From the NCBI RefSeq assembly GCF_048403405.1, contig NZ_CP183129.1: DNA of 64,000 bases; one strand, given 5' to 3'. The notes beneath the pieces were generated by a model. The model was not told the DNA's origin. It saw only the letters and a list, made by a program, of their open reading frames with translations, and did no database searches. Of this stretch, positions 3,313 through 43,049 are shown piece after piece. Numbering within the stretch: the stretch's first letter is position 1; every line of letters starts with the position of its first letter. A program made the position numbers and the translations under genes. This DNA comes from Escherichia coli. Its GTDB lineage: Bacteria > Pseudomonadota > Gammaproteobacteria > Enterobacterales > Enterobacteriaceae.

Positions 3313-3314
3313 GA

Positions 3315-4942: not shown

Positions 4943-5110
<168 letters not shown>

Positions 5111-16709: not shown

Positions 16710-16746
16710 CTTTCCCCCAAAGCGTAACGTTACGCCTTATTATTCG

Positions 16747-25008: not shown

Positions 25009-26148
25009 TTAGTACAGAGAGTGGGTGTTACGTTCAATATCTTCTTTGGTGATACGACCGAACATTTTCCAGTAACACCAGGCGGTGTAGAGCAGAATGA
25101 TCGGTACCAGAACCACCGCAACCCAGGTCATGACGTTAAGCGTCAGCTGGCTGGAAGTTGCATCCCACATTGTCAGACTTGCGTTCATCATGGTGCTGGA
25201 CGGCATCACAAACGGGAACATTGCGATACCGGCTGTCAGGATGATGCAGGCCAGCGTCAGGGAGGAGAACACAAACGCCCACGCGGCTTTATCCATACGT
25301 GCAGTCAGGATGGTCAGCAGCGGCAGAACCACACCCAGTGCCGGAATAGCCCACAGAATTGGCGTGTTGTTGAAGTTAACCAGCCATGCGCCAGCTTCAC
25401 GAACCACTTCTTTATTCAGTGGGTTAGAGGCTGCGTAATGGTCCATTGTCGATTTCACGACATAACCATCGATACCGTACATCACCCATACGCCAGCCAG
25501 TGCGAAACAGACCAGTGTCACCAGTGCCGCCACCTGAGCCGTTGCACGGGTACGCAGGTGCAGTTCGCCCACGGTACGCATTTGCAGATAGGTTGCGCCC
25601 TGAGTAATGATCATCCCTACGCTCACCACGCCTGCCAGCAGGCCGAACGGGTTAAGCAGCTGGAAGAAGTTACCGGTGTAGTACAGACGCAGATATTCAT
25701 CAACGTTGAACGGTACGCCCTGCAACAGGTTACCGAACGCTACACCAATCACCAGCGGCGGAACGAAGCTACCAATGAAGATGCCCCAGTCCCACATGTT
25801 ACGCCAGCGGGTTTCTTCAATCTTGGAGCGGTAGTCAAAACCGACCGGACGGAAGAACAAAGACGCCAGCACGAGGATCATCGCCACATAGAATCCGGAG
25901 AACGCAGCGGCATAGACCATCGGCCAGGCAGCAAACAGAGCGCCGCCCGCGGTGATAAGCCAAACCTGGTTACCGTCCCAGTGTGGTGCGATGGAGTTAA
26001 TCATAATTCGACGCTCGGTGTCGTTACGACCGAGGAAACGGGTGAGCATGCCCACCCCCATGTCGAAACCGTCAGTGACTGCAAAACCAATCAGCAGAAC
26101 GCCAACCAGCAGCCACCAGATAAAACGCAATACTTCATAATCGATCAT
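25009..26148 (-). CDS. cydB: Cytochrome bd-I ubiquinol oxidase subunit II
   Basis: 379 aa; recognised as CydB. Confidence 0.96.
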   Translation of the reverse strand: MIDYEVLRFIWWLLVGVLLIGFAVTDGFDMGVGMLTRFLGRNDTERRIMINSIAPHWDGNQVWLITAGGALFAAWPMVYAAAFSGFYVAMILVLASLFFRPVGFDYRSKIEETRWRNMWDWGIFIGSFVPPLVIGVAFGNLLQGVPFNVDEYLRLYYTGNFFQLLNPFGLLAGVVSVGMIITQGATYLQMRTVGELHLRTRATAQVAALVTLVCFALAGVWVMYGIDGYVVKSTMDHYAASNPLNKEVVREAGAWLVNFNNTPILWAIPALGVVLPLLTILTARMDKAAWAFVFSSLTLACIILTAGIAMFPFVMPSSTMMNASLTMWDATSSQLTLNVMTWVAVVLVPIILLYTAWCYWKMFGRITKEDIERNTHSLY

Positions 26149-26163
26149 TTGACGACTCCTGTC

Positions 26164-27732
26164 TTAGCGTGCCGGCTGAGTAGTCGTGGAAGACTGCTCA
26201 AAGTGATAGCGACCGGTTTTCAGGCTGCTTGGGCCGAGGCGTGCAAACTTGAACATTAAGAACAATTCTGCCACCAGGAACAGGGTATACAGGCCGCAAA
26301 TCAGCACCATTGAGAAGATGAGATCGCCTGCGGTCAGTGACGAGTTCGCCACAGCTGTCGGCAGCACTTCACCGATAGCCCACGGTTGGCGGCCATATTC
26401 AGCCACGAACCAGCCCGCTTCTACAGCAATCCACGGCAGCGGAATACCATACAGCGCGGCGCGCAGCAGCCATTTTTTCTCGCCAATGCGGTTGCGGATG
26501 ACACTCCAGAAAGAGAGCGCGATGATTGCCAGCAGCAGGAAGCCACACGCCACCATGATACGGAACGCGAAGTACAGCGGCGCTACACGCGGAATGGAGT
26601 CTTTGGTTGCCTGTTGAATCTGCGCTTCAGTCGCATCAGCCACGTTTGGCGTATAGCGTTTCAGCAGCAGACCGTAACCGAGGTCTTTCTTCATGCTATT
26701 GAACTGGTCACGAACCGCCTGGTCGGTAGAACCAGAACGCAGTTGTTCGAGCAGAGAGTACGCCTTCATCCCGTTACGAATGCGTTCTTCATGCTGCACC
26801 ATCAGTTCTTTCAGGCCGATAACTGGAGTATCCACGGAACGCGTTGCAATGATGCCCAGCGCGTAAGGGATCTGGATCGCAAATTTGTTCGTCTCCTCTT
26901 CCTGATCAGGAATGCCGAACAGAGTAAAGGCAGCAGGCGCAGGTTGCGTTTCCCACTCGGCTTCAATAGCAGCCAGTTTGGTTTTCTGCACGTCGCCCAT
27001 TTCGTAACCAGATTCATCACCCAGAACAATAACAGACAGAACGGCAGCCATACCGAAGCTGGCAGCGATAGCAAAGGAGCGTTTAGCGAAGGCGAAGTCA
27101 CGACCTTTCAGCATATACCATGCGCTGATACCGAGGATGAACATCGCGCCAGTCACATAACCAGACGCTACAGTGTGAACGAATTTCACCTGAGCAACCG
27201 GGTTAAGCACCAGCTCGGAGAAGCTCACCATCTCCATACGCATAGTTTCAAAGTTGAAATCGGACGCGATTGGGTTTTGCATCCAGCCGTTCGCAACCAG
27301 AATCCACAGTGCGGACAGGTTTGAACCGAGCGCCACCAGCCAGGTGACACACATATGCTGAACTTTACCCAGACGATCCCAACCGAAGAAGAACAGACCT
27401 ACAAAGGTGGATTCGAGGAAGAAGGCCATCAGACCTTCGATTGCCAGCGGCGCACCGAAGATATCCCCTACATAGTGGGAATAGTAAGACCAGTTAGTCC
27501 CGAACTGGAACTCCATAGTCAGACCGGTAGCCACACCCAGAGCGAAGTTGATACCAAACAACTTGCCCCAGAACTTGGTCATATCTTTATAAATCTGTTT
27601 GCCGGAAAGGACGTAGACCGTTTCCATAATGGCCAGCAGGAACGCCATACCGAGCGTCAGTGGCACAAAAAGGAAGTGGTACATCGCGGTCAAGGCAAAC
27701 TGTAAGCGCGACAGTTCGACTATATCTAACAT
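26164..27732 (-). CDS. cydA: Cytochrome bd-I ubiquinol oxidase subunit I
   Basis: Start at the second Met ([20 protein letters not shown]..., 522 aa); recognised as CydA. Confidence 0.96.
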
Positions 27733-28069
27733 CATGACTCCTTGCTCATCGCATGAAGACTCCGAGAGTGAACCCCGTTAGAAAGGGTCACACGCATGCC
27801 CCAATACAAAATTATTTGCTCGCCTCTATCGTTGCCATTTCATCAAAAGAGGAAAAGACAATGATAAAAAAGTTACAAATATGTTAATGAATAAACCAAA
27901 TTGATCCCGTAATTATATTACGCCGCAAAATCCTTACAATAAACAGGTTTTTATTGAGCAAATTTGCATTTTTCGACAGTGATCAATTTATAGCGAAATT
28001 GTCACGATCTCACCAATTTGATCTACGACAATTTATCGTGTTTTGCAGATTTTTTTCAAGAATTAAAAA

Positions 28070-28083
28070 TTGATTTATATCAA
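28070..28083 (-). promoter_or_regulatory. Candidate FNR site in the cydA upstream region
   Basis: Perfect TTGAT-N4-ATCAA (ttgatttatatcaa) about 340 bp upstream of cydA; a weaker half-site match ttgatctacgacaa lies at 28018-28031. Confidence 0.55.
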
Positions 28084-28537
28084 AACCAACCAAATATGTT
28101 AATTATGTATAAACCATAGATCATTGGTGATTTTATTGTTAATTTATTGTGAAATATTTATGCAACACAATTATTACAATGAAAAGGTATAGATAAAAAA
28201 CCAGTGTTTTATTTAACAGAACCGCCTTATCCACTTTTTATAATACCAATTGATTAGATTAGCCAATTTGTTGCTATTTTACATAACATATTTTTATCAA
28301 AGTTAATTGATTGTTGCGTTTATGAGCACCGGCCGTAAGCCCGTTATGTTATTGTTTCATTAGTAATAATCACTTAAATGTATCGATGAAACAGGTATGA
28401 CTTAGCGGGAGTGATTGTTTCTGAGTGAACAGAGACCACTTTCGCCTGATAAATGAAAAATGAGCGATTTTTGCAAGTTAGTTTTTCTATAGCCGAGTAC
28501 GCTCAGCGCCTCGCTTGATTACAATGAGGTTGCTGCT

Positions 28538-29482
28538 ATGAGTCCTGATAATATCAGTTCTGCTGTCAATCGCTTCTCAGGTTGGCCATCTAATGATCCT
28601 CTAAAAACAGATAAAGAATCAATGACATCACCCATGACTGTGCAGGTAATAAAGATGATTGCCGCCATCCTTGACCCACATCGGATAGTCGTTGGAATCG
28701 ATACACTTTATACAACGCAGCGCGAAACATTTACCTCAGAGAGTCAACAGCTCATTGAATCAGCATTGCAAACACTTCATGTGATGAATTTAAATAACCT
28801 GGAAACAAATCTCGATGAGGAAGGTCACTATCTGGCTTTTGGATATAACGTTGACACTCCTGACAGAATAACCGTTTCTGCTTATAATGAAAAAAAGCCT
28901 GGCTGCTATGGCCAATGTCTTTTAATACAGGATGACGAAACAGACTTATTTAACCTGATAAAAGTTAAAATTTTTGAAGCCAGGCATAATTATGTCGCTC
29001 AATTGATGAGCGATCCGGAATTTATGTTCAAATTTAGTTATAGCGCTCAACAAAATAGATTAGAACCTCATCTTCTGGTTCCCACTTATTTCCCTCTAAA
29101 AACAAACGAACCGGTTACGCAAGAGGATGTACTGTTACTTTATCGTTTCTTTAAAATGGATGGTGATTTTAATATATTAACATCAGATGAATACATGAGT
29201 ATCATGACACCTCTGATGAAGTGTGAGCGCAGCATCCACGACCACAACAGGTATGTGACGGGCAAAGATACCCTTCTTCTGGACTATCCTCCTTCTGGTA
29301 ACCAGATATATTTCCATATTTTTCCTGACGAATCAGCAACACTAGTCCTTTATTTTTCAAACAATGACATTGAATGTTTCGTCTTTGAAAGAGATATTCC
29401 GAGCCAGTATCGCTTTTTCAAAATGTTTACCAATCTGGCACTGGTTATTGATCAGTTAACCGATGCCAATCAAATACTTTAA
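28538..29482 (+). CDS. Hypothetical protein, 314 aa, no recognisable domain; in an AT-rich block
   Basis: Long ORF in a visibly AT-rich region; polar Ser/Pro/Asn-rich N-terminus (MSPDNISSAVNRFSGWPSNDP), no signal peptide or TM segment seen; plausible purine-rich RBS-like stretch upstream (aatgaggttgctgctATG). Confidence 0.6.
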   Translation: MSPDNISSAVNRFSGWPSNDPLKTDKESMTSPMTVQVIKMIAAILDPHRIVVGIDTLYTTQRETFTSESQQLIESALQTLHVMNLNNLETNLDEEGHYLAFGYNVDTPDRITVSAYNEKKPGCYGQCLLIQDDETDLFNLIKVKIFEARHNYVAQLMSDPEFMFKFSYSAQQNRLEPHLLVPTYFPLKTNEPVTQEDVLLLYRFFKMDGDFNILTSDEYMSIMTPLMKCERSIHDHNRYVTGKDTLLLDYPPSGNQIYFHIFPDESATLVLYFSNNDIECFVFERDIPSQYRFFKMFTNLALVIDQLTDANQIL

Positions 29483-29562
29483 TTTTTATATATTCCCTGT
29501 GGCAAATATTGCTAAACAATGCCCGGGGATTAATTTTTATTACTCACGGAAAGATTTAAATA

Positions 29563-29985
29563 ATGATCCCATCTCAAATCTCTTTCAACACCCTTCCTGT
29601 CAATGCAACATACGCTTCAGAGACAACAGTTGACACACAAAAATTCTCTGACATCCTCTACTCAGCGGGGTGTTCCCTAAAGGATCTGGCTTATTTGAGC
29701 AGATGTCTGGCATCAATACATCCGACTATCGCCAAAAACATTTATGAAACAGAAAATCTCAGCGATCAAAAATTACTACATATTGATTGCCGTAGTACAA
29801 ATGAAATCAAGATAAATATCTTTTTTGGTCAACAACGAGAAGGATTAATTGAAATTAGTTCTGACACAGTCATTTTTTCGATACTGTCTTCATTGATTGA
29901 CTCCACCATTTCTAAATTTCAACACCAAAACCCCGTTAACGGTTCTGTAAATCCTGACCTATTGTATGAGGATTATACTGATTAA
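29563..29985 (+). CDS. Hypothetical protein, 140 aa, acidic, no recognisable domain
   Basis: ORF 80 bp downstream of the 314-aa ORF on the same strand; by my count about 17 Asp+Glu against about 9 Lys+Arg; same AT-rich context. Confidence 0.5.
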   Translation: MIPSQISFNTLPVNATYASETTVDTQKFSDILYSAGCSLKDLAYLSRCLASIHPTIAKNIYETENLSDQKLLHIDCRSTNEIKINIFFGQQREGLIEISSDTVIFSILSSLIDSTISKFQHQNPVNGSVNPDLLYEDYTD

Positions 29986-30532
29986 ATCCCTCCTGTCGCG
30001 AAAAATGGCCTGCGTTATTGCCAGACGTAATAAAACTTTTGATTAACGTTTCTCGTACTGGTAGCACCTTCATGTACTTTTCTTTTTTACGAAAAATCAA
30101 AAGAGCTAACAAAGGTCATAATTCGCATGAATCATTAATTATTTGTTATTTTCAACATTATTTTTACATTAAGCAGAGATGAATTGCAGTGAAATTCGAC
30201 TTAACTTTTATGAAATGCATTTACTCATGGCTAAAGCCACGTCACAAAAATGCAAATTAGAAGTAGATCACAAATATCTCAATACATCAAATCAAGTTAA
30301 TTTTAAAAATTTAATATTCATGACATTAGTTGACATAACACACTGAATTATAATGAGAATTTGAAAACACACTTTAAACAATCATTTCCCGAAAGACATT
30401 TTGAAAATAGATCAATTGCAACATTACGGTCAGATAAAGACACTCCTGTGATATTAAACCTGTGCCGTTATGAACGGCCATAAATACGACGTGTGTAACT
30501 TATTTTACTCTCTGTCTTACAAAGGATTACCC

Positions 30533-30982
30533 ATGAAGAAAGCAACACTTGTGATTGGCGTTATTGGCGCGGACTGCCATGCAGTAGGCAATAAAGTTCT
30601 GGACCGCGTTTTTAGCAACCATGGCTTCAGAGTCATTAATCTGGGCGTAATGGTCAGCCAGGACGAATATATTGATGCTGCCATTGAAACTGGTGCTGAC
30701 GCGATTGTCGTCTCCTCTATCTATGGGCATGGCGATATCGATTGTCTGGGCATGCGCGAACGCTGCATTGAGCGTGGGCTGGGTAACATCCTGCTCTATG
30801 TGGGCGGTAACCTGGTGGTCGGAAAACATGACTTCGCTGACGTGGAAACCAAGTTCAAAGAGATGGGATTTGATCGCGTCTTTGCCCCAAGTCATGACTT
30901 AGAAGATGTTTGTCAGCTGATGGCCCACGATATCAACCAACGTCATGACGTTGATACTCGCATTCTTGAAGAGGCAATCTGA
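30533..30982 (+). CDS. mamA: Glutamate mutase sigma (S) subunit, B12-binding component
   Basis: Start set at [21 protein letters not shown] (good RBS aaaggattacccATG); carries the cobalamin His-ligand motif DxHxxG (DCHAVG); close resemblance to clostridial GlmS/MutS as I recall them. Confidence 0.9.
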
Positions 30983-32370
30983 TGCAAATCGTCTCTGTCG
31001 ATATTGGATCGACGTGGACCAAAGCAGCCCTCTTCGCCCGGGAGGGGGACGCGTTAACGTTGGTTAACCACGTACTGACCCCAACCACCACCCATCATCT
31101 GGCGAAGGGTTTTTTCTCCAGCCTGAACCTGGTGTTAAACGTAGATAATGCCCTCCCCCTGTTTAACAACGGTGAGGTTGCATTGAAGTATTCCTCCTCT
31201 GCCAAAGGTGGGCTGGCGGTTGCCGCAATGGGGTTGGTGCCATCTATCACCCTGGAAACCGCGAAAGTAACCGCTCACTCTGCGGGGGCTAAAATTGCGC
31301 AATATTACGCCTACAAGCTGAACCGCCGTGATATCCAGGCACTGGAAGAAACGCAGCCCGATATTCTCTTGTTCACCGGCGGCACCGACGGCGGAGAAGA
31401 AAGCTACGGCCTGAATAACGCCCGTGTGCTGGCAGAATCCAAACTCGACTGCGCCATTATTTATGCCGGAAACCGGGATATTCAGGACGAGGTGCAGGAG
31501 ATCCTAGGGCATAAAGACCTGACCATCGTCGACAACGTTCTGCCCGATCTTGACCATCCGAACCCTTTAGCTGCACGCCAGGCTATCTGCGACATATTCC
31601 TTAAACGCATCGTTAAAGGGAAAGGGCTGGATGTCATTGTTGATAAAACAGGCGAAGAACCAATGCCGACACCATGGACGGTCTTTGAACTGGTTAAGGC
31701 AATCAGTAACGTCGATCACAGCTGGAAAGAGTTCATGCTTATCGACATGGGCGGCGCAACCACCGATGTCTATTCAGCCTGTGCCAACACGCTCTCGCCC
31801 GACACCGTTTTACACGGCGTACCGGAACCCTTCGTGAAACGGACGGTGGAAGGCGATCTGGGAATGCGCGTCTCGGCAATGGTGGTTGGTGAAAGTGCGA
31901 AAGAGTTAGTCAATGTGAATTTTGCTCAGCAACCCGCACAGCTGGACGCTTTTTATCATTACCTCCGTCATCTAGTCGCTCATCCCGACTACTTACCCGC
32001 GAATGTAGAAGAAAAATATTTCGATACCGTCCTGGCCGGACTGTGTGTGGGTTATGCCACCGAAAGACATGCGGGCACCAAAAAAGAGGTCTGCACCTGC
32101 GTCGGCAATGTCGATTTACAGATGGGACGTGACCTGACAACCGTGCGTAAAGTCGTCGGATCCGGCGGATGGCTCTCGCGTGCCAGTCAGTTCGATATGC
32201 ATCACTGGTTGAAATACCGCGAGTTAAACGACGACGGTAAACGCATTCTCTTACCGACCGAATTTGAATATTACCGCGATTCCCGGGGGCTATTACCACT
32301 GCTGGCAAACGTCGCCAGAGTCGATCCGCTGGCCGCCGCGCGCACCAGTATTCAATGCTTAACCCTATAA
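30982..32370 (+). CDS. glmL: Glutamate mutase-associated L component (MutL/GlmL-like, putative reactivating chaperone)
   Basis: 462-aa ORF whose ATG overlaps the S-subunit stop (ATGA); sits between S and E as in clostridial mutS-mutL-mutE; N-terminus [18 protein letters not shown] is an ASKHA-type phosphate-1 motif. Confidence 0.75.
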   Translation: MQIVSVDIGSTWTKAALFAREGDALTLVNHVLTPTTTHHLAKGFFSSLNLVLNVDNALPLFNNGEVALKYSSSAKGGLAVAAMGLVPSITLETAKVTAHSAGAKIAQYYAYKLNRRDIQALEETQPDILLFTGGTDGGEESYGLNNARVLAESKLDCAIIYAGNRDIQDEVQEILGHKDLTIVDNVLPDLDHPNPLAARQAICDIFLKRIVKGKGLDVIVDKTGEEPMPTPWTVFELVKAISNVDHSWKEFMLIDMGGATTDVYSACANTLSPDTVLHGVPEPFVKRTVEGDLGMRVSAMVVGESAKELVNVNFAQQPAQLDAFYHYLRHLVAHPDYLPANVEEKYFDTVLAGLCVGYATERHAGTKKEVCTCVGNVDLQMGRDLTTVRKVVGSGGWLSRASQFDMHHWLKYRELNDDGKRILLPTEFEYYRDSRGLLPLLANVARVDPLAAARTSIQCLTL

Positions 32371-32388
32371 CAATTAAGGCTGCAATCA

Positions 32389-33834
32389 ATGGAACTTCGA
32401 AATAAGAAATTAACCCATGACGAATTCATGACCGAGCGGCAACAGGTACTGAAAACCTGGGAAACCGGCAAGGATGTTGAAAACTTTGAAGATGGCGTTA
32501 AATACCAACAAACCATTCCTGAGCATAAACGCTTCTCTCTTGTGCTGTTGAAAGCAGACAAGGAAGGTAAAACCCTTAGCCAACCGCGCGCAGGTGTGGC
32601 GCTGATGGACGAACACATCGAACTACTGAAAACACTACAAGAAGAGTGCGATCTGCTGCCGAGCACTATCGATGCATATACCCGTCTGAATCGGTACGAA
32701 GAAGCGGCTGTAGGGATTAAAAAATCCATCGAAGCCGGAACCTCTAAACTGAACGGTTTACCGGTCGTTAACCACGGCGTCGCAGCTTGCCGTCGCCTCA
32801 CCGAAACTTTGCAAAAACCGCTACAGATCCGCCACGGCACGCCAGATGCGCGTCTGCTGGCTGAAATCTCGATGTCCAGCGGCTTTACCAGTTATGAAGG
32901 CGGCGGCATTTCCTACAATATTCCGTATGCCAAGCGCGTAACGCTGGAAAAATCGATCCGCGACTGGCAGTACTGCGACCGTTTAATGGGGATGTATGAA
33001 GAACACGGGATCCGCATCAACCGCGAACCGTTTGGCCCACTAACGGGTACGCTGATCCCGCCGTTTATCTCGCACTCTATCGCGATAATCGAAGGCTTGC
33101 TGGCGCTGGAACAGGGTGTGAAATCTATCACCGTTGGTTATGGACAGGTCGGCAGCCTGACGCAGGATGTTGCGGCGATCCAGTCTCTGCGTGAACTTGC
33201 ACACGAATATTTTCAGAGCTATGGCTATACCGACTATGAATTAAGTACCGTGTTTCACCAGTGGATGGGCGGCTTTCCGGAAGACGAATCGAAAGCGTTC
33301 GCTATTATCTCCTGGGGCGCAGCCGTCGCGGGGATGTCTGGTGCCACCAAAGTCATCACCAAAAGTCCGCACGAAGCCTGGGGTATCCCGACTGCCGCTG
33401 CCAACATTCAGGGGCTGAAAGCCTCCCGCCAGATGCTCAACATGGTCAACGAGCAGAAATTCCCGCCGTGCCCTGCGGTTGAACTGGAAATTGAACTGAT
33501 TAAGAGCGAGGTTCGCGCGGTACTGAATAAAGTGTTCGAACTGGGTAATGGTGATATTGCGCGCGGTACGGTGCTGGCATTTGAAGCGGGCGTACTGGAT
33601 GTGCCGTTTGCGCCAGCCGCCTGCAACGCGGGCAAAATTCTTCCGGTCCGTGACAACACCGGCGCGATACGCGTACTGGAAGCCGGAGCCGTTCCATTGC
33701 CAAAAGATATTCTCGACCTCCACCACGATTACGTTGCGGAACGCGCACGCTTTGAAGGACGCCAACCGACATTCCAGATGGTTGTAGATGACATCAATGC
33801 TGTATCCCACAGTAAATTAATAGGAAGACCATAA
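32389..33834 (+). CDS. glmE: Glutamate mutase epsilon (E) catalytic subunit
   Basis: 481 aa; MELRNKKLTHDEF..., QPRAGVALMDEHIELL, LPSTIDAYTR, NGLPVVNHGV and GGGISYNIPYAK closely parallel clostridial GlmE/MutE as I recall it. Confidence 0.9.
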   Translation: MELRNKKLTHDEFMTERQQVLKTWETGKDVENFEDGVKYQQTIPEHKRFSLVLLKADKEGKTLSQPRAGVALMDEHIELLKTLQEECDLLPSTIDAYTRLNRYEEAAVGIKKSIEAGTSKLNGLPVVNHGVAACRRLTETLQKPLQIRHGTPDARLLAEISMSSGFTSYEGGGISYNIPYAKRVTLEKSIRDWQYCDRLMGMYEEHGIRINREPFGPLTGTLIPPFISHSIAIIEGLLALEQGVKSITVGYGQVGSLTQDVAAIQSLRELAHEYFQSYGYTDYELSTVFHQWMGGFPEDESKAFAIISWGAAVAGMSGATKVITKSPHEAWGIPTAAANIQGLKASRQMLNMVNEQKFPPCPAVELEIELIKSEVRAVLNKVFELGNGDIARGTVLAFEAGVLDVPFAPAACNAGKILPVRDNTGAIRVLEAGAVPLPKDILDLHHDYVAERARFEGRQPTFQMVVDDINAVSHSKLIGRP

Positions 33835-35075
33835 TGAAAATAAAACAGGCTCTGTTCACCGCTGGCTACTCCTCATTCTATTTCGATGACCAGCAGGCGA
33901 TAAAAAACGGAGCGGGTCACGACGGTTTTTTTTATACCGGGGAGCCGGTAACACAGGGGTTTAACGCCGTTCGTCAGGCCGGGGAGTGCGTATCGGTACA
34001 GTTGATTCTGGAAAACGGCGCGGTCGCCGTAGGTGACTGTGCTGCCGTACAGTATTCCGGGGCAGGTGGTCGCGATCCACTGTTCCTCGCAGAGCACTTT
34101 ATTCCGTTCCTCAACGACCATATCAAGCCATTACTGGTAGGCCGCGATGTGGATGCTTTCCTGCCGAATGCCCGTTTCTTCGACAAATTGCGTATTGACG
34201 GCAACTTGCTGCATACCGCCGTGCGCTACGGATTATCACAGGCGCTGCTTGATGCTACCGCGCTGGCAACCGGCCGTCTGAAAACTGAAGTGGTCTGTGA
34301 TGAATGGCAGTTGCCACGCGTGGCGGAATCCATTCCATTATTTGGTCAGAGCGGCGACGATCGATATATCGCCGTCGATAAGATGATCCTTAAGGGCATC
34401 GACGTGCTGCCCCATGCGCTGATTAATAACGTCGAAGAGAAGCTGGGCTTTAAAGGTGAAAAACTGCGCGAATATGTCCGCTGGCTGTCGGATCGTATTC
34501 TGAGCAAGCGCACCAGCGCACGCTACCACCCTACCCTGCACATCGATGTATACGGCACTATCGGTCTGATCTTCGATATGGATCCGCTTCGCTGTGCGCA
34601 ATACATCGCCAGCCTGGAAAAAGAAGCGCAAGGCCTGCCGCTCTACATTGAAGGGCCGGTCGATGCTGGTAACAAGCCCGATCAAATTCGCCTGCTGACC
34701 GCGATTACCAAAGAGCTGACACGCCTCGGTTCCGGCGTGAAAATTGTGGCCGATGAATGGTGTAACACCTACCAGGATATTGTTGATTTCACAGATGCCG
34801 CCAGTTGCCACATGGTGCAAATCAAAACCCCGGATCTGGGCAGTATTCACAACATCGTCGATGCGGTTCTTTACTGCAACAGCCACAGCATGGAAGCGTA
34901 CCAGGGCGGCACCTGCAATGAAACTGATGTCAGTGCCCGCACCTGTGTCCACGTCGCCCTTGCCGCTCGCCCTATGCGTATGCTGGTAAAGCCAGGGATG
35001 GGCTTTGACGAAGGCCTCGATATCGTCTTCAACGAAATGAATCGTACTATCGCGCTGTTGCAGGCTAAGGATTAA
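33834..35075 (+). CDS. mal: 3-Methylaspartate ammonia-lyase (enolase superfamily)
   Basis: 413 aa; ATG overlaps the glmE stop; DCAAVQYSGAGGRDPLF, QSGDDRY, LPHALINNVEEKLG, HMVQIKTPDLG and GGTCNET match MAL as I recall it. Confidence 0.93.
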   Translation: MKIKQALFTAGYSSFYFDDQQAIKNGAGHDGFFYTGEPVTQGFNAVRQAGECVSVQLILENGAVAVGDCAAVQYSGAGGRDPLFLAEHFIPFLNDHIKPLLVGRDVDAFLPNARFFDKLRIDGNLLHTAVRYGLSQALLDATALATGRLKTEVVCDEWQLPRVAESIPLFGQSGDDRYIAVDKMILKGIDVLPHALINNVEEKLGFKGEKLREYVRWLSDRILSKRTSARYHPTLHIDVYGTIGLIFDMDPLRCAQYIASLEKEAQGLPLYIEGPVDAGNKPDQIRLLTAITKELTRLGSGVKIVADEWCNTYQDIVDFTDAASCHMVQIKTPDLGSIHNIVDAVLYCNSHSMEAYQGGTCNETDVSARTCVHVALAARPMRMLVKPGMGFDEGLDIVFNEMNRTIALLQAKD

Positions 35076-35078
35076 CAA

Positions 35079-36449
35079 ATGGCTCGTTCTTTTAAAGTCT
35101 TATCGCCAACGGCAATCCTCGGGTATGGATTCCCGGAAGAGAGCTTCCGTAAAGCGATGGCAGAATCGCCCGATCTGATCGCCGTTGATGCAGGCTCTTC
35201 CGATCCTGGCCCCCACTACCTCGGGGCGGGCAAACCGTTTACCGATCGCGCAGGGGTCAAGCGCGATCTGCGCTATATGATCACCGCAGGCGTGCAAAAT
35301 AATATACCGGTGGTGATCGGAACGGCTGGCGGTTCTGGTGCCGCACCACACCTGGAGTGGTGCCGAGAAATAATTCATGAGATTGCCCAGGAAGAGCACC
35401 TCTCGTTCTCAATGGCGCTGATCCCGGCAGACGTTGACAAAGCCATCGTCCACCAGGCGCTGGATAACGGCAAAATCACGGCGCTGGAGTTTGTCCCGCC
35501 GTTAACCCACGACGCGATTGACGAAAGTACGTATATCGTTGCGCAAATGGGCATCGAACCCTTCCAGCGGGCGCTGAAAGAAGGCGCGCAAGTGGTGCTG
35601 GGCGGGCGCGCTTACGACCCGGCCTGCTTTGCTGCGCTTCCGATCATGCAAGGCTTTGATGAAGGTCTGGCGCTGCATTGTGGGAAAATCCTTGAATGCG
35701 CGGCAATCGCCGCAACGCCCGGCTCAGGCTCTGACTGTGCGATGGGCATCATTGATGACAACGGCTTTACGCTGAAGACATTTAATCCGAAGCGTAAATT
35801 TACCGAAACGTCAGCGGCTGCACACACACTGTATGAGAAATCCGATCCCTACTTCCTGCCTGGACCTGGCGGCGTGTTGAACCTGAAAGGCTGCACATTT
35901 AAAGCGGTCAATGACAGCGAAGTGTACGTCAGCGGTTCTAAGCATGAAGAAACGCCGTATGCCCTGAAACTGGAAGGTGCGCGACGAGTGGGCTTCCGCT
36001 GTCTGACCATCGCAGGAACGCGCGACCCGATCATGATCGCCGGGATCGATAAAATCATCGATGAAGTCAAAACCAGCGTTTCGCGTAACCTGTCGCTCGA
36101 CGATGACAGCATTCGCATCAATTTCCACCTGTACGGCAAAAACGGGGTGATGGGAGACCATGAACCGATGCAAACTGCCGGGCATGAGCTGGGGATTGTC
36201 CTTGATGTAGTTGCACCGACCCAGGAAATTGCCAACAGCGTTTGCTCGCTGGTGCGCTCTACCATGCTGCACTACGGCTATGAAAACCGCATCGCTACCG
36301 CAGGTAATCTGGCGTTCCCGTTCTCCCCTTCTGATATCCAGGGCGGGCCGGTATACGAATTTTCCATATATCACCTGATTGAAGCCAACGACGCTCTGCG
36401 TTTTGATTTCCATATTGAACAGGTGACGCCAGAAGGAGTTCAGGCATGA
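35079..36449 (+). CDS. Uncharacterised protein, probably DUF1446 / AtuA-like family
   Basis: 456-aa ORF starting 4 nt after the MAL stop; family assignment is from memory of AtuA-like N-terminal features and is not verified. Confidence 0.5.
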   Translation: MARSFKVLSPTAILGYGFPEESFRKAMAESPDLIAVDAGSSDPGPHYLGAGKPFTDRAGVKRDLRYMITAGVQNNIPVVIGTAGGSGAAPHLEWCREIIHEIAQEEHLSFSMALIPADVDKAIVHQALDNGKITALEFVPPLTHDAIDESTYIVAQMGIEPFQRALKEGAQVVLGGRAYDPACFAALPIMQGFDEGLALHCGKILECAAIAATPGSGSDCAMGIIDDNGFTLKTFNPKRKFTETSAAAHTLYEKSDPYFLPGPGGVLNLKGCTFKAVNDSEVYVSGSKHEETPYALKLEGARRVGFRCLTIAGTRDPIMIAGIDKIIDEVKTSVSRNLSLDDDSIRINFHLYGKNGVMGDHEPMQTAGHELGIVLDVVAPTQEIANSVCSLVRSTMLHYGYENRIATAGNLAFPFSPSDIQGGPVYEFSIYHLIEANDALRFDFHIEQVTPEGVQA

Positions 36450-36763
36450 AACAGTCAATTGTCTCACTGGCGCAAGTCATTCGTTCGAAAAATGCCGGAC
36501 CTTACGAACTGGTTTTAGATATTTTATTTAAAACCAAAGAAAACTATGAGCGTGTCAAATCATCAGGGCAATTAACCCCAGAACTGATCGCGCGCTTATA
36601 TCATGTTGAACCTGACTTTATTCATCGTATTGTCTGGTTTGATCCTTCTAACGCAGTAAAAATCGTCATGCCACGAGATATTATCTCCGGGAATGTAGGT
36701 GACAATGATGTCTATGGTGCACAGCAACATGCACCTTTATTAAATATGAGTTTCGATTTGTAA
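36446..36763 (+). CDS. Small uncharacterised protein, possibly DUF4387, coupled to the upstream ORF
   Basis: 105-aa ORF whose ATG overlaps the upstream stop (ATGA); family name is a tentative recollection. Confidence 0.45.
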   Translation: MKQSIVSLAQVIRSKNAGPYELVLDILFKTKENYERVKSSGQLTPELIARLYHVEPDFIHRIVWFDPSNAVKIVMPRDIISGNVGDNDVYGAQQHAPLLNMSFDL

Positions 36764-36846
36764 AAATCCGAATACTTTTAGCCAACTGACATCCCGTCAC
36801 TTATTGCAGTTCAACACTTCAGCTATTTGTAAGGTTGTAATAGCAG

Positions 36847-36878
36847 GTAGATGCCTGAATCTCTATTCGGGCATCTAC
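36847..36878 (+). terminator. Intra-operon stem-loop (possible partial terminator or attenuator)
   Basis: 9-bp perfect stem gtagatgcc / ggcatctac with a 14-nt loop, followed by a U-rich but interrupted tract (ttctcctgattctgattt); lies between the small coupled ORF and the transporter. Confidence 0.4.
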
Positions 36879-36923
36879 TTCTCCTGATTCTGATTTATCG
36901 CCGTGCACCTGATGGAGGAAAAA

Positions 36924-38204
36924 ATGAAGAAAATAAGTTTAACCACGATGATTCTTTTGGCGCTGGTACTTGGAATGATTATCGGCGTAGTGCTCAATAA
37001 CACTGCTTCACCGGAAACCGAAAAACTCTATGCGCAAGAAATATCGATATTCACGACGATTTTCTTACGACTGATAAAAATGATTATCGCTCCGTTAGTG
37101 GTCTCTACCCTGGTGGTAGGTATAGCTAAAATGGGCGATGCCAAAGCCCTTGGTCGTATTTTTTCTAAAACACTCTTTTTATTTATTTGCGCCTCATTGC
37201 TGTCAATTGCCTTAGGCTTGATAACAGTAAATTTCTTCATGCCAGGCACAGGAATTAATTTTGTTGCACACGGAGCCGAAACCACCGGAGTGGTCGCGTC
37301 AGAACCCTTTACGCTAAAAGTATTTATTTCGCATGCTTTCCCCACCAGCATTGTCGATGCCATGGCGCACAATGAAATTTTGCAAATCGTGGTGTTCTCA
37401 ATTTTCCTCGGCTGTAGCCTGACGGCGATTGGCGAGAAAGGCAGCGCCATCGTTCACGCCTTAGATTCGCTGGCACATGCCATGTTAAAGCTCACTGGCT
37501 ACGTCATGCTCTTCGCTCCCCTGACCGTATTCGCTGCTATTTCAGCATTGATTGCTGAACGAGGACTGGCAGTTATGGTGAGCGCCGGGATCTTTATGGG
37601 TGAATTTTATTTCACCATGTTATTACTTTGGGTGCTGCTTATCGGTCTGGCCATCGTTTATGTTGGCCCCTGCATCAGACGCCTGACCCGCGCCCTTTCG
37701 GAACCCGCCCTGCTGGCATTTACCACATCCAGTTCTGAAGCGGCTTTTCCGGGAACGCTTGAAAAACTGGAGCAATTTGGCGTTTCCCCCAAAATTGCCA
37801 GCTTTGTCTTACCCATTGGCTACTCATTTAATCTTGTTGGATCAATGGCCTACTGCTCCTTCGCCACAGTTTTCATCGCCCAGGCCTGCAATATCCATTT
37901 ATCCATCGGTGAGCAAATCACCATGCTGTTGATCCTGATGTTGACCTCGAAAGGAATGGCTGGCGTACCACGCGCCTCAATGGTGGTTATCGCCGCCACG
38001 CTCAACCAGTTCAATATTCCGGAAGCGGGGCTGATCTTGCTGATGGGCGTTGATCCGTTCCTTGATATGGGGCGTTCCGCGACAAACGTCATGAGCAACG
38101 CAATGGGCGCTGCGATGGTGAGTCGGTGGGAAGGCGAACATTTCGGCGAGGGTTGTCGGGGTAAAGCATTAAAACCCAATGAATCGAACGTTGCTCTGCC
38201 CTGA
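36924..38204 (+). CDS. Dicarboxylate/amino acid:cation symporter (DAACS family; GltP/DctA-like)
   Basis: Start at MKKISLTTMILL with RBS ggagg 5 nt upstream; about 426-aa polytopic protein; LRLIKMIIAPLV and surrounding TM pattern typical of DctA/GltP family carriers. Confidence 0.8.
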   Translation: MKKISLTTMILLALVLGMIIGVVLNNTASPETEKLYAQEISIFTTIFLRLIKMIIAPLVVSTLVVGIAKMGDAKALGRIFSKTLFLFICASLLSIALGLITVNFFMPGTGINFVAHGAETTGVVASEPFTLKVFISHAFPTSIVDAMAHNEILQIVVFSIFLGCSLTAIGEKGSAIVHALDSLAHAMLKLTGYVMLFAPLTVFAAISALIAERGLAVMVSAGIFMGEFYFTMLLLWVLLIGLAIVYVGPCIRRLTRALSEPALLAFTTSSSEAAFPGTLEKLEQFGVSPKIASFVLPIGYSFNLVGSMAYCSFATVFIAQACNIHLSIGEQITMLLILMLTSKGMAGVPRASMVVIAATLNQFNIPEAGLILLMGVDPFLDMGRSATNVMSNAMGAAMVSRWEGEHFGEGCRGKALKPNESNVALP

Positions 38205-38311
38205 GGGGGATCTTAAGCAATCAGAAGCCAATGACTACGCATTTTTATAAGCCGGATCATGAAGTTAGACGGCAATTAAGTAAAACTAACGTTTAAGGTG
38301 AAAAGTGAAAT

Positions 38312-39964
38312 ATGTCCAAACCATTTATCTGGCAAGAACCGTTTCTACAAAATAAAGACGGTACAGAATATACATTAATTAGCGATCAACATATTACAGT
38401 AACGGAATTAGACGGCGAAGAAGTAATAAAAATCGCTCCTGAAGCATTAACGCTGCTTGCCCGGCAGGCATTTTATGAAGCCTCTTTTTTCTTACGTTCC
38501 GCTCATTTGCAACAGGTCGCCAGCATTCTTAACGATCCGCAGGCCAGTAGTAATGATAAATACGTTGCGTTGCAGTTATTACGTAATGCTGAAGTCTCAG
38601 CAAAAGGGGTATTACCCAACTGTCAGGATACCGGCACCGCAACTATTGTTGCCAGTAAAGGGCAACAGATATGGACGGGAGGTAACGACGCTGAAGCCTT
38701 AAGCAAAGGCATTTACAGTACTTTCCAGGAAAATAACCTGCGCTTTTCACAAAATGCGCCGCTGGATATGTACACCGAAGTCAATACGCAAACCAATCTC
38801 CCGGCGCAGATTGATATCAGCGCTGTCGCTGGTGATGAGTACCATTTTCTCTGTATTAATAAAGGGGGCGGCTCTGCCAATAAAGCCGCGCTTTATCAGG
38901 AAACCAAATCCTTATTGCAACCAGAAAAACTGACCGCATTTTTAATCGAAAAAATGAAATCGCTGGGCACCGCTGCCTGCCCGCCTTACCACATCGCCTT
39001 TGTCGTCGGAGGGCTTTCAGCCGATCAAACCTTAAAAGTTGCCAAGCTGGCCTCAACGAAATATTACGACAATTTGCCCACCAGCGGAAACGAGCAAGGA
39101 CAAGCATTCCGTGATATTGAGCTGGAAAAAGTATTGCTCGAGGCCAGTCAGCAATTTGGTATTGGTGCGCAATTTGGAGGTAAATATTTCGCTCATGATA
39201 TTCGCGTCATTCGTCTGCCGCGTCACGGTGGCTCCTGCCCGATAGCTATGGCGCTCTCCTGTTCTGCCGATCGCAATATCAAAGCAAAAATTAACAAGCA
39301 CGGTATCTGGCTGGAAAAACTCGAACACAATCCGGGGCAATATATTCCAGCCTCACTGCGGGAAGAAAATCACGCGCAACATGTACAACTGGATCTAAAC
39401 CGTCCGTTGCGTGACGTGATGCAGGATCTCGCCAGATTACCGGTAGGCACCCGCGTGTCGTTAAGTGGTCCCATCGTAGTGGCACGCGATATCGCCCACG
39501 CCAAAATAAAAGCGCGGCTGGATAACGCCGAACCGATGCCGGATTACCTGAAGCATCATATTGTCTATTACGCTGGCCCGGCGAAAACACCGGAGAACAT
39601 GGCCTGCGGTTCACTGGGTCCAACCACGGGCGGTCGAATGGACGGTTATGTCGATACCTTCCAGGCGGCTGGCGGCAGTCTGGTGATGTTATCGAAAGGT
39701 AACCGCAGCCAGCAGGTCACCGATGCCTGTCACAAACATGGTGGCTTCAATCTGGGTAGTATTGGCGGTGCAGCTGCGTTACTGGCGCAAGAATATGTCA
39801 AAAGTCTGCGTTGCCTGGAATACCCGGAGCTGGGTATGGAAGCGGTGTGGATGATGGAAGTGGAAAATCTGCCCGCATTCATCCTGGTAGATGATAAAGG
39901 CAATAATTTCTTTAGTCAGTTTGAGCAGCAACACCGCTGCGCCAGTTGCCCTGCGGGACATTAA
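38312..39964 (+). CDS. fumD: Class I fumarate hydratase-type hydratase, probable mesaconase (FumD-like)
   Basis: 550 aa, same size class as FumA/FumB; N-terminal [22 protein letters not shown]... and [10 protein letters not shown] ([4Fe-4S] hydro-lyase signature region) recognised. Confidence 0.85.
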
Positions 39965-39973
39965 GGAAAATGA

Positions 39974-40576
39974 ATGGAAGCGCGAATTTCAACTGAACGG
40001 CATGTGCAGCGCCAGCAGAAATTGAAGGAACAGGTCGATACGCGCGTCGCGGCGGCGATAGAGAAAAAAGGGATTTTGATTGTTTTCACCGGCAATGGCA
40101 AAGGGAAATCCACTGCCGCGTTTGGTACTGTGACGCGCGCGGTGGGTCATGGCAAAACGGTGGGGGTTGCGCAGTACATCAAGGGGCAATGGGACAACGG
40201 CGAATACAACCTTCTCCAGCCGCTGGGGGTTGAGTTTCATATTATGGGAACCGGTTTTACCTGGGAGACACAGAACCGGCAAGCGGATATCGACGCGGCG
40301 AAAGAGGTCTGGTCGGAAAGCAAACGGATGCTGGCTGACAAGCGTTACGACTTAGTGGTGCTTGATGAGCTGACCTATATGCTGGCTTACCATTATCTGG
40401 ACACCGAAGAAGTGATCGCTTCTCTGCAAAACCGCCCGGCACAACAAAGTGTCATTGTCACCGGACGCGGTTGCCACAGTCAGATATTAAAAATGGCGGA
40501 TACGGTCAGCGAAATCCGCCCCGTCAAACATGCTTTTGATAACGGCATTCAGGCGCAGCCGGGTATCGACTGGTAA
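39974..40576 (+). CDS. Cob(I)yrinic acid a,c-diamide / cob(I)alamin adenosyltransferase (CobA/BtuR family)
   Basis: 200 aa; P-loop GNGKGKST; near-colinear with E. coli BtuR as I recall it (IIVFTGNGKGKTTAAFG...GFTWETQNR...VVLDELTYM...VKHAFD). Confidence 0.88.
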   Translation: MEARISTERHVQRQQKLKEQVDTRVAAAIEKKGILIVFTGNGKGKSTAAFGTVTRAVGHGKTVGVAQYIKGQWDNGEYNLLQPLGVEFHIMGTGFTWETQNRQADIDAAKEVWSESKRMLADKRYDLVVLDELTYMLAYHYLDTEEVIASLQNRPAQQSVIVTGRGCHSQILKMADTVSEIRPVKHAFDNGIQAQPGIDW

Positions 40577-40579
40577 TAA

Positions 40580-40606
40580 CTGCGCCTGGCATCCCGCCAG
40601 GCGCAG
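40580..40606. terminator. Bidirectional terminator between the adenosyltransferase gene and the convergent LysR gene
   Basis: Perfect 11-bp inverted repeat ctgcgcctggc / gccaggcgcag with a 5-nt loop, flanked by A/T; abuts both stop codons. Confidence 0.7.
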
Positions 40607-40609
40607 GTT

Positions 40610-41515
40610 TTACATCTCCTGCGGTACGACCGATTTCGCCAGCAACCATTCACGAAATTGCTGCAAGTGCGGCGAGTCAGACTTCTCTTCCTGCCACGTC
40701 ATAATAAAACGATTACCGGTACGAATAGGCACATCACAGGGAATCACCATATCGCCACTATCCAAATCATGTTGAATAGCGAACCGTGGTAACAGCGCCA
40801 CGCCGAGATTAGAGCGCACGGCGGCAATCAGCATTGAAAGCAAATCGAAACGTGGTCCGTTATTGACCAGCGGACTGCTAACGCCAGATAAAGCAAACCA
40901 CTCTTCCCAGCCAGTAATACGGGTGCTTTGATGCAGAAGTGGTAACTCAGTAAGCAGTTCTGCCACTGACAGTTTTTGATCGGACATTGCAAGCAAACTG
41001 CCGCTGCATACCGGCAAAATCTCCTCATCAAAGAGATATTCTACTTCCGCCCAGGGCGCGCAAAAATTTTCGCGCATAATGACAGCATCGTACTCCCGAT
41101 TAAGAAAATCGCCGTTATTAGCTAAAGAATGAATATTAACAATAATATCGGGATGTAACTTTGTGAATTCATGTAAATTTGGGATTAACCAGTGGGTACT
41201 AAAAGTAGGATTAACGGCAAGTTCAATAACCTGAACCGTAGGCTGCCAGGTCATAATGGTATTGGTATCGCGTTCCAGCTTATTTAATGTTTCTTTTACT
41301 ATCCCCAGGTAATACTTCCCTGCATCATTAAGAAAAATACGTTTTTTAGAGTGTGAAAATAACGGAGTATGTAAAAATTCCTCCAGCGCACTCACTTGTC
41401 TGAATACAGCACTTTGGGTTAACGCTAACTCCTCTGCCGCTCTGGTATAACTTTCATGACGTGCGACGACCTCAAAAGTCACCAGCAGCTCCGTTTTAGG
41501 TATTTTTCCTCGCAT
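40610..41515 (-). CDS. LysR-type transcriptional regulator
   Basis: 301 aa; N-terminal HTH (ESYTRAAEELALTQSAVFRQVSALEE) and LysR substrate-binding domain. Confidence 0.88.
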   Translation of the reverse strand: MRGKIPKTELLVTFEVVARHESYTRAAEELALTQSAVFRQVSALEEFLHTPLFSHSKKRIFLNDAGKYYLGIVKETLNKLERDTNTIMTWQPTVQVIELAVNPTFSTHWLIPNLHEFTKLHPDIIVNIHSLANNGDFLNREYDAVIMRENFCAPWAEVEYLFDEEILPVCSGSLLAMSDQKLSVAELLTELPLLHQSTRITGWEEWFALSGVSSPLVNNGPRFDLLSMLIAAVRSNLGVALLPRFAIQHDLDSGDMVIPCDVPIRTGNRFIMTWQEEKSDSPHLQQFREWLLAKSVVPQEM

Positions 41516-41554
41516 AATGCCGTCCCTTAAAAATAGTTTAAACCATCAAAAATA

Positions 41555-41576
41555 CATTACTTATTACGAAGTAATG
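41555..41576 (-). promoter_or_regulatory. Dyad-symmetric site upstream of the LysR gene (candidate autoregulatory operator)
   Basis: Perfect inverted repeat cattactt-attacg-aagtaatg centred about 50 bp upstream of the LysR start codon, in AT-rich DNA. Confidence 0.4.
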
Positions 41577-42080
41577 GTAACCAAAGCAGCAATAAATAAT
41601 TTATAAGAATCATGATTGACATTTATAACCCAGTAAGCCTGGCGTGACAAATATCTTAATCAGATAATAATAATCCGAAAAGCACAGCGCCTTTCGAATT
41701 ATCCGGAATCACATTAAGTGAAAATTATTAAATTGATATCATTTATCATATCTGTGGATATTATGATAAACAATCAACAAAGATTTTATTTTTGATTTAT
41801 AGCATATCCCTCTAAGAATTTTTGCGATGCTGCAATATCCGGGTAAAGACCCGATCCTGGCTGACAAATGGCACGACTTGACGATAAGCGGTGAACATCG
41901 CTTTTGTTGATTTACTTAACGCTACGGTCAAACGCTGGGAAGCCAGTGCATCAGGTAACGATTCGAAATTCGCCGTCGTTCTTATTCGTGGCTTGCGGTC
42001 GGTTGCGGCAATCCACAGTGGCTGTGGTCATGCAGTCAAGCCAGCGGTCAGATTTCGACCGTGGTTAACATTTAAGGCAT

Positions 42081-42179
42081 AAAAAAGGCCATCATACGAT
42101 GGCCAACCATGTCGAAACCGACAGCCCTTCGCCATTCCTGTAGAGGGAAGCGGCGAGGGCTATTTCTTATTACAGATAT
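42081..42179 (-). ncRNA. sdhX: Probable SdhX (RybD)-type sRNA from the sucD 3' UTR, with intrinsic terminator
   Basis: Directly downstream of the sucD stop; ends in hairpin ggccatcgtatgatggcc followed by a T run (read on the minus strand); K-12 has an sRNA at this position; the 5' boundary is undefined because it is a processing product. Confidence 0.55.
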
Positions 42180-43049
42180 TTATTTCAGAACAGTTTTCAG
42201 TGCTTCACCGATATCCGCCAGGCTGCGAACGGTTTTCACGCCTGCGGCTTCCAGAGCAGCGAATTTCTCATCCGCAGTCCCTTTTCCACCGGCAATGATC
42301 GCACCCGCGTGGCCCATACGTTTGCCTTTCGGCGCAGTCACACCAGCGATGTAACCCACAACAGGCTTGGTAACGTGCTCTTTGATGTACGCAGCCGCTT
42401 CTTCTTCAGCGCTACCGCCGATCTCACCGATCATCACGATCGCTTCGGTCTGCGGATCTTTTTCGAACATTTCGAGGATGTCGATAAAGTTAGAGCCAGG
42501 GATCGGGTCGCCGCCGATACCAACACAGGTCGACTGACCGAAACCGTAATCCGTGGTCTGTTTCACCGCTTCATAGGTCAGTGTACCGGAACGGGAAACG
42601 ATACCCACTTTACCCGGTTTGTGAATGTGACCAGGCTGGATACCGATTTTGCATTCACCCGGAGTGATAACGCCTGGGCAGTTCGGGCCGATCATGCGAA
42701 CGCCCGCTTCATCCAGTTTCACCTTCACGGTCAGCATATCCAGCGTCGGGATGCCTTCAGTGATGGTGATAATCAGTTTGATGCCTGCATCAATAGCTTC
42801 CAGAATGGAGTCTTTGCAGAACGGTGCTGGTACGTAGATAACAGAAGCGGTAGCGCCAGTAGCAGCAACAGCTTCACGCACGGTGTTGAACACCGGCAGG
42901 CCGAGGTGGGTGGTGCCGCCTTTACCTGGGGTTACGCCGCCAACCATTTTAGTGCCGTATGCAATGGCCTGTTCTGAGTGGAAAGTCCCCTGGCTACCGG
43001 TAAAGCCCTGGCAGATAACCTTGGTGTTTTTATCAATTAAAATGGACAT
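42180..43049 (-). CDS. sucD: Succinyl-CoA synthetase alpha subunit
   Basis: 289 aa, [24 protein letters not shown]...; recognised as SucD. Confidence 0.97.

Follow-up and report, generated by a model that had tools for sequence, protein, structure and literature searches.

A CobA-type adenosyltransferase gene at the end of the methylaspartate operon in an Escherichia coli genomic island

We analysed a 64,000-nucleotide stretch of an Escherichia coli genome (contig NZ_CP183129.1; hereafter the window), which carries a genomic island with the genes of the B12-dependent glutamate (methylaspartate) mutase and, as the last gene of the same array, a gene for a cobalamin adenosyltransferase, referred to below as island cobA. 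The initial annotation of the window had described the product of this gene as a near-colinear paralogue of the housekeeping enzyme BtuR/CobA and had suggested that it supplies or regenerates adenosylcobalamin (AdoCbl) locally for the mutase. Our comparisons indicate a genuine CobA-type paralogue of long standing within the methylaspartate cluster, and a dedicated supply of AdoCbl for the mutase is plausible, if unproven. The gene and its principal sites, with lengths in amino acids (aa), are the following.

39974-40576, plus strand: island cobA, a cobA/cobO paralogue encoding an ATP:co(I)rrinoid adenosyltransferase of the CobA/BtuR type, 200 aa (open reading frame, NCBIfam, PDB, RefSeq cobO)
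40091-40114, plus strand: codons of the P-loop GNGKGKST, residues 40-47 (sequence, alignment to Salmonella CobA and E. coli BtuR)
40256-40264, plus strand: codons of F95-T96-W97, the counterpart of Phe91/Trp93 at the corrinoid site of Salmonella CobA (alignment)

The reading frame starts with ATG, runs through 200 codons and ends with TAA, directly followed by a second TAA; read on the opposite strand, this stretch is riddled with stop codons. Two opposite-strand open reading frames (39989-40282 and 40257-40442) were rejected as chance frames, given that neither has family or conservation evidence and that it is the plus-strand frame that is conserved. With 295.6 bits for PRK05986 (cut-off 185) and 246.6 bits for TIGR00708 cobA (cut-off 167.75), the deduced protein clears both NCBIfam thresholds, and PF02572 is listed for its orthologues. 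The best match among solved structures is Salmonella CobA (1g5r/1g5t/1g64 and 4hut; E 2.5e-88), with residues 6-200 aligned gap-free to residues 2-196 of 1g5r, the N-terminal helix included. BLASTP comparison with E. coli BtuR, encoded at the yciK-btuR locus, gave 132 identities in 196 positions (67%) without a gap (E 3e-105), the sole length difference being four additional N-terminal residues in island CobA. Across 27 aligned sequences the P-loop segment G36-K41, including N37, K39 and K41, is invariant, as are T43, R51, F91, W93, E128, R161, H182 and D195 (Salmonella numbering); F95 and W97 of the island protein thus belong to positions that are unchanged in 27 of 27 sequences. According to Moore et al. 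2012, as cited in PMC5282855, Phe91 and Trp93 close the corrinoid site and give rise to four-coordinate cob(II)alamin. Taken together, the family scores, the structure match, the BtuR alignment and the conserved residues establish island CobA as a real CobA-type paralogue, in agreement with the initial annotation both on its colinearity with BtuR and on the P-loop, and the gene probably encodes a catalytically competent adenosyltransferase.

In E. coli the island is an insertion between cydA and sucD, and its core is a co-directional array of nine genes with short or overlapping junctions, glmS-glmL-glmE-mal-cmlA-cmlB-transporter-fumD-cobA, of which cobA is the last, starting 9 nucleotides (nt) 3' of the fumD stop codon. 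The features of the array and its downstream border are given below.

30533-30982, plus strand: glmS, B12-binding subunit S of methylaspartate (glutamate) mutase (PRK02261, 252 bits, cut-off 110; RefSeq)
30982-32370, plus strand: glmL (mutL), mutase accessory protein with an actin-like ATPase fold, presumed reactivase
32389-33834, plus strand: glmE, catalytic subunit E of the mutase (TIGR01503, 863.5 bits, cut-off 390)
33834-35075, plus strand: mal, methylaspartate ammonia-lyase (TIGR01502, 543.9 bits, cut-off 286)
35079-36763, plus strand: AtuA/DUF1446 gene (35079-36449) and DUF4387 gene (36446-36763), probable citramalate lyase CmlAB (PDB match)
36924-38204, plus strand: dicarboxylate/amino acid:cation symporter, GltP/DctA-like, presumed to take up glutamate (below-cut-off NCBIfam DctA/GltP matches; RefSeq)
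38312-39964, plus strand: fumD, class I fumarase/mesaconase, directly upstream of cobA (NF011921, 1284 bits, cut-off 1060)
39963-39967, plus strand: Shine-Dalgarno sequence AAGGA, overlapping the fumD stop codon (39962-39964) and 6 nt before the ATG of cobA (sequence)
40580-40606: GC-rich hairpin of 11 pairs, nine of them G-C, in the gap where cobA and the LysR gene converge (terminator scan and fold)
40610-41515, minus strand: gene for a LysR-family regulator of 301 aa, convergent with cobA, intact (open reading frame; below-cut-off GcvA-like matches)

The enzyme genes of the window all exceed the NCBIfam equivalog cut-offs. On the identical sequence of NZ_CP028192.1, RefSeq annotates two hypothetical proteins, glmS, glmL, subunit E, methylaspartate ammonia-lyase, an AtuA-family protein, a DUF4387 protein, the symporter, class I fumarate hydratase, cobO, the convergent LysR-type regulator and sucD. 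The hairpin that follows cobA folds with -28.3 kcal/mol (z -4.5 versus shuffles) and is probably a bidirectional terminator that marks the end of the operon. No cobalamin riboswitch, nor any other Rfam family, was found in a scan of 26000-43000 at E <= 0.1. At the other end of the operon, the longest open reading frame of glmS starts at 30470 (170 aa), and the family models align from its residue 22, with the RefSeq start at 30533 (149 aa, MKKATLV...); the upstream extension 30470-30532 is probably not translated. As for the regulator, the LysR gene is intact in the window and is annotated as frameshifted in NZ_CP028192.1 (locus positions 16637-17541), a record whose cobA is 100% identical to ours; if the regulator has decayed in some strains, this could be one cause of the silence of the cluster. 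The LysR gene adjoins cobA or fumD in other genera too.

The island origin of the gene, stated in the initial annotation, is borne out by its patchy distribution and by its base composition, with G+C content (GC) dipping to 34-39% at both island edges and reaching 51-55% across glmL-cmlA. Island cobA occurs in 1121 of 5426 complete E. coli genomes (21%; megablast, all matches with at least 80% query coverage). A second locus, 68% identical and annotated as cobO at yciK, that is, btuR, was recovered by sensitive blastn in 5422 of the 5426 genomes, the total coming to 6546 places in 5425 records. Each of the island-bearing records listed, including the 100%-identical NZ_CP028192.1, shows two places, which implies that carriers hold two CobA-type genes. 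The initial annotation had expected two copies in this very strain; the window stops short of btuR, and it is in identical and related genomes that the second copy is seen. E. coli lacks de novo B12 synthesis, and the island carriers also have EutT in their eut operon. Full-length glmE is present in 1121 E. coli genomes as well, the same number as for island cobA, with partial glmE in ten more.

Beyond E. coli, the nearest database relatives of island CobA belong to a set of 200-aa proteins distinct from the BtuR orthologues; they are 83-87% identical to the window protein and come from Citrobacter, Enterobacter, Salmonella and [Enterobacter] lignolyticus. On Salmonella enterica, Enterobacter cloacae and Citrobacter amalonaticus contigs the relative lies 9 nt after a 550-aa fumarase, in the array MutL - Met_asp_mut_E - MAAL - AtuA - DUF4387 - SDF - (glutaminase) - fumarase - cobA, followed by a convergent LysR gene. 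We then considered one genome per species from a GlmE scan, which gave 80 loci, and searched for cobA by tblastn within 10 kb. A full CobA-type gene was found within this distance of glmE at 20 of the 80 species-level loci, all 20 in Enterobacterales. Seventeen of these encode proteins of the 200-aa island clade, 80-86% identical to the window protein and all directly after fumD (11 Citrobacter, plus Pluralibacter, Raoultella, Lelliottia, Buttiauxella, K. oxytoca, S. enterica arizonae and S. enterica diarizonae), and the 9-nt spacing between fumD and cobA is kept in 16 of the 17. Linkage of fumD and cobA in the same operon thus extends to about 10 genera. The remaining three loci differ. In Yersinia aldovae and Y. 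rohdei the copy is 196 aa long and housekeeping-like, with T42, R165 and D166; it too lies just after fumD, and it is 69-71% identical to BtuR versus 64-66% to the window protein. The CobA of Enterobacter sp. ENT03 is of a third type, more distant (61% identical). In Yersinia (locus positions 2018-5500 in Y. aldovae and 18-3500 in Y. rohdei) the order is lysR-fumD-cobA, with all three genes on the strand opposite to the glm operon.

Proteins of the island clade are only 64-68% identical to E. coli BtuR, whereas BtuR and Salmonella CobA share 89% identity, which argues for an old, separate lineage and against a recent duplication of btuR. As judged from these sequence comparisons, island cobA is such a lineage, tied to the cluster. 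The location beside glutamate mutase given in the initial annotation needs a refinement: the gene does share one array with glmS, glmL and glmE, but its immediate conserved partner is fumD.

Pairwise ratios of nonsynonymous to synonymous substitution rates (dN/dS) are 0.04-0.10 for cobA versus 0.02-0.05 for fumD and glmE in the same pairs, taken only from pairs with finite dS, as dS is saturated in many cobA and fumD pairs. This indicates that island cobA is under clear purifying selection, somewhat more relaxed than that on its neighbours. In the alignment, 24 columns split 21 island-clade sequences from housekeeping-type CobA, including T42S in the P-loop, R165 to A, S, T or N (Ser in the window) and D166 to L, Q or R. 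Arg9 is kept in island CobA, as R13. Buan and Escalante-Semerena are said to have found, in 2005, that Arg9 and Arg165 are needed for flavodoxin docking and not for catalysis.

Several further features of the island were noted. Its cydA-proximal end holds two genes (28538-29985; 314 and 140 aa; GC 35-39%) that RefSeq lists as hypothetical proteins. The E. coli island is a reduced version, as it is without the glutaminase gene found between transporter and fumD (here 38204-38312) in Salmonella, Enterobacter and Citrobacter. The islands of Salmonella and Citrobacter continue beyond LysR with a TP_methylase (SUMT) gene and a gene for a PocR-domain AraC regulator, both missing from the window, where only 665 nt (41516-42180) separate LysR from sucD; the Salmonella island abuts sucD as in E. 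coli. Between E. coli and other genera, dS is saturated for fumD and cobA and about 1.0-1.6 for glmE, mal and cmlA, and GC over the stretch from transporter to fumD is 42-49%, lower than in the 5' part. The operon may therefore be a mosaic, with a 3' part (36500-40576) whose history differs from that of the 5' part (30500-36500).

That island CobA is enzymatically active, is co-transcribed with the operon and serves the mutase, and that GlmL plays the part described below, are our inferences. In the reading that we favour and consider fairly probable, island cobA encodes a CobA-type enzyme that, as the last cistron of the methylaspartate operon, raises the AdoCbl supply for glutamate mutase. 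The operon position, the co-occurrence with glmE in E. coli, the placement in about 10 genera and the purifying selection all speak for it, though circumstantially. When the operon is switched on, the extra adenosyltransferase would add capacity above a low constitutive level of BtuR, converting imported or recycled cob(II)alamin or cob(III)alamin into AdoCbl. By analogy with the family, cob(II)alamin would be bound in a four-coordinate state by means of the Phe95/Trp97 pair, an electron would be accepted from reduced flavodoxin or free flavin, and the adenosyl group would then be transferred from ATP held by the P-loop. For corrinoid bound to the adenosyltransferase, reduction by FldA or free flavin and the four-coordinate state have been described (PMC4083273). 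The AdoCbl formed would be loaded onto newly made GlmS/GlmE, and mutase that has lost the adenosyl group might be re-supplied after release of the damaged cofactor by GlmL and its re-adenosylation.

Several observations weigh against a dedicated supply. The tightest conserved neighbour of cobA is fumD, whose product is not B12-dependent, and not glmS, glmL or glmE. Within 10 kb of glmE no CobA-type gene was found in Morganella, Hafnia or Budvicia, where fumD is missing too; in Pseudescherichia vulneris, Escherichia sp. ESNIH1 and UBA7338, where LysR directly follows fumD; or, outside Enterobacterales, at any of about 48 loci (among them Sporomusa, Caloramator, Pelosinus, Aminicenantes, Azoarcus and Propionivibrio). 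A tblastn search for PduO-type genes near glmE at the 80 loci likewise returned no match; with a Lactobacillus PduO sequence as its seed and without a positive control, this negative is a weak one, and the search did not extend to EutT-type genes. In Escherichia sp. E1V33, a member of a cryptic Escherichia lineage, cobA has suffered an internal deletion equivalent to window positions 39983-40315 (codons 4-114); the transporter is lost as well, with glmS-cmlB, fumD and LysR kept (locus positions 9165-9417 and 11074-11334). The dN/dS of cobA is about twice that of fumD and glmE. Finally, in E. coli O157:H7 ATCC 700728 no condition with expression of the cluster was found, and neither methylaspartate ammonia-lyase activity nor glutamate-dependent growth was detected, with or without hydroxo-, cyano- or adenosylcobalamin (PMC4682846). 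Because cobA is missing from many glmE clusters and partly deleted in E1V33, it is a dispensable extra in one enterobacterial form of the cluster, physically tied to fumD and not to the mutase genes. The dedicated supply or regeneration proposed in the initial annotation has partial, circumstantial support, and the association falls short of a rule for glutamate mutase clusters.

Several of these observations would suit a redundant passenger, that is, an active or semi-active enzyme carried along with the fumD-LysR part that adds nothing to BtuR and EutT and has no tie to the mutase: the many mutase clusters without cobA, the deleted copy of E1V33, the conserved adjacency to fumD in place of glmS, glmL or glmE and a dN/dS somewhat above that of the neighbours, to which the retention of btuR in essentially all carriers may be added. 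We nevertheless regard this explanation as unlikely, in view of a dN/dS of 0.04-0.10 maintained across saturated synonymous divergence, which implies long-term selection for function, the retention of all catalytic residues, the 9-nt junction kept in about 10 genera and an E. coli count that equals that of full-length glmE. The 24 clade-separating columns, with T42S and the changes at R165 and D166 among them, could instead point to a specialised partner of the mutase, in which the island clade uses a donor other than flavodoxin or hands AdoCbl to GlmS with the help of GlmL, the conserved ATPase of the same operon. We know of no CobA-type enzyme with such a hand-off or with direct cofactor delivery, Arg9 is conserved, and the linked copies of Yersinia keep T42, R165 and D166 in the same position after fumD. 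Chaperone activity of adenosyltransferases does have a precedent (PMC8633584). On this evidence a specialised partner seems quite improbable, and we are slightly more doubtful still that the clade as a whole, with its systematic loss of the surface pair Arg165/Asp166 and its change of Thr42 to Ser, is a CobA lineage re-tuned for the mutase, be it to another electron donor or to direct delivery to GlmS with GlmL; were it so, a role as cofactor chaperone would be seen for the first time in an enzyme of the CobA type.

It is very unlikely, in our view, that the gene belongs to a module that boosts B12 synthesis, in which its main task in donor lineages would be the adenosylation of cob(I)yrinic acid a,c-diamide during de novo corrin synthesis, together with the neighbouring uroporphyrinogen-III methyltransferase (SUMT) and a PocR-like regulator, and that it persists in E. 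coli as a leftover confined to salvage. Such a role would agree with the SUMT and PocR-domain genes past LysR in the Salmonella and Citrobacter islands, with the listing of SumT among the cluster genes by Kronen and Berg, and with a window that has neither gene in its short LysR-sucD interval. However, Salmonella and Citrobacter already own a housekeeping cobA for de novo synthesis, island cobA lies in a catabolic operon and does not adjoin SUMT, Enterobacter cloacae has cobA with no SUMT or PocR gene adjoining, and 1121 genomes of E. coli, which has no de novo synthesis, keep cobA intact.

The part assigned to GlmL in the favoured reading, dedicated supply of AdoCbl, calls for separate comment. 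GlmL scored 507 bits against the NCBIfam model for methylaspartate mutase accessory protein GlmL (cut-off 475) and has the actin-like (ASKHA) ATPase fold, and no sequence relative was found among solved structures. Homology of the GlmL insert to GlmS was rejected at the sequence level (hhalign probability 0.14%). Kronen and Berg called GlmL a reactivating chaperone, citing work on diol dehydratase (PMC4682846). The initial annotation had assigned the reactivase role with caution, and given the lack of a sequence relative among solved structures and the source of the published label, this caution was justified; GlmL is therefore a presumed reactivase.

A side result concerns the two genes downstream of mal. 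The AtuA/DUF1446 protein (456 aa, 35079-36449) matched the PDB entries 9erq and 9evf, named 'Citramalate lyase, subunit A (cmlA)', with E 8.8e-292 over residues 1-456 and is essentially identical to them, and 'cmlAB' of Raoultella has been used as a citramalate lyase (bioRxiv 10.64898/2026.01.16.699985). Together with the overlapping DUF4387 gene, which likely encodes the B subunit, it probably constitutes the citramalate lyase CmlAB, although RefSeq still names the products 'acyclic terpene utilization AtuA family protein' and 'DUF4387 domain-containing protein'. With CmlAB, the island would encode a whole route from glutamate through methylaspartate, mesaconate and (S)-citramalate to pyruvate and acetate, and so fill a gap in the account of Kronen and Berg, who left the fate of citramalate open (PMC4682846). 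The literature collection searched contained no primary paper on CmlAB and none on enterobacterial glutamate fermentation after 2015.

The cluster as such has been described before. Kronen and Berg (2015, PLoS One 10:e0145098, PMC4682846) put its frequency at 14.8% in Enterobacteriaceae, 26.5% in E. coli and 90.6% among O157:H7 strains, with the gene order glmS-mutL-glmE-mal-DUF1446-gltP-fumD-cobA-LTTR, and characterised FumD as a mesaconase/fumarase. Their Fig. 5 names CobA, glossed as a cob(I)alamin adenosyltransferase, together with LTTR, GltP and SumT in the cluster. The CobA of that figure is the same gene as island cobA, which we infer to be ECs0756 in O157:H7 Sakai, and it is only labelled in that paper. 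With the RefSeq annotation as cobO and the published label, the gene and its position beside glutamate mutase are already known. The present analysis contributes the structure of the clade, the conservation of the fumD-cobA junction, data on selection, the distribution over 80 species with its taxonomic limits, and the cases of loss. Neither gene nor idea is new, and the value of the work lies mainly in a tidy annotation and the comparative data. A dedicated supply, if true, would be of practical interest wherever glutamate mutase is engineered into E. coli to produce mesaconate or C5-diacids, and would go some way towards explaining how scavenged cobalamin could sustain glutamate fermentation in gut pathogens such as O157:H7.

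Compared with the known adenosyltransferases, island CobA resembles Salmonella CobA and E. coli BtuR in family, length, domain order, a gap-free identity of 67-69%, the P-loop and the Phe91/Trp93 pair, and differs from them in its four extra N-terminal residues and the 24 clade-specific substitutions. Unlike btuR at the yciK-btuR locus, it lies in a catabolic island operon that only 21% of E. coli genomes possess. The human enzyme ATR (MMAB) together with MMAA supplies and repairs the cofactor of methylmalonyl-CoA mutase with the aid of an NTPase (PMC8633584 and PMC10356863). ATR, however, is of the PduO type and a proven chaperone, and its helper is a G-protein, whereas GlmL is an ATPase with an actin fold.

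PduO of the pdu operon (with PduGH) and EutT of the eut operon (with EutA) are pathway-dedicated adenosyltransferases of Salmonella and E. coli, encoded in operons of AdoCbl-dependent enzymes, each beside a reactivase-like ATPase and in organisms that also have a housekeeping CobA. By analogy, island cobA appears to share this operon logic, as it accompanies the genes of an AdoCbl-dependent enzyme and of a reactivase-like ATPase. In E. coli it is indeed co-inherited with such an enzyme alongside the housekeeping copy, and across taxa the association is confined to 20 of 80 loci. The island protein is of the CobA type (PF02572), unrelated to the families of PduO and EutT, and unlike pdu and eut the island encodes neither a microcompartment nor a dedicated corrin reductase equivalent to PduS. 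If a dedicated supply holds true, the methylaspartate operon would be the third enterobacterial B12-dependent catabolic operon, after pdu and eut, to carry an adenosyltransferase of its own, in this case one of the CobA type.

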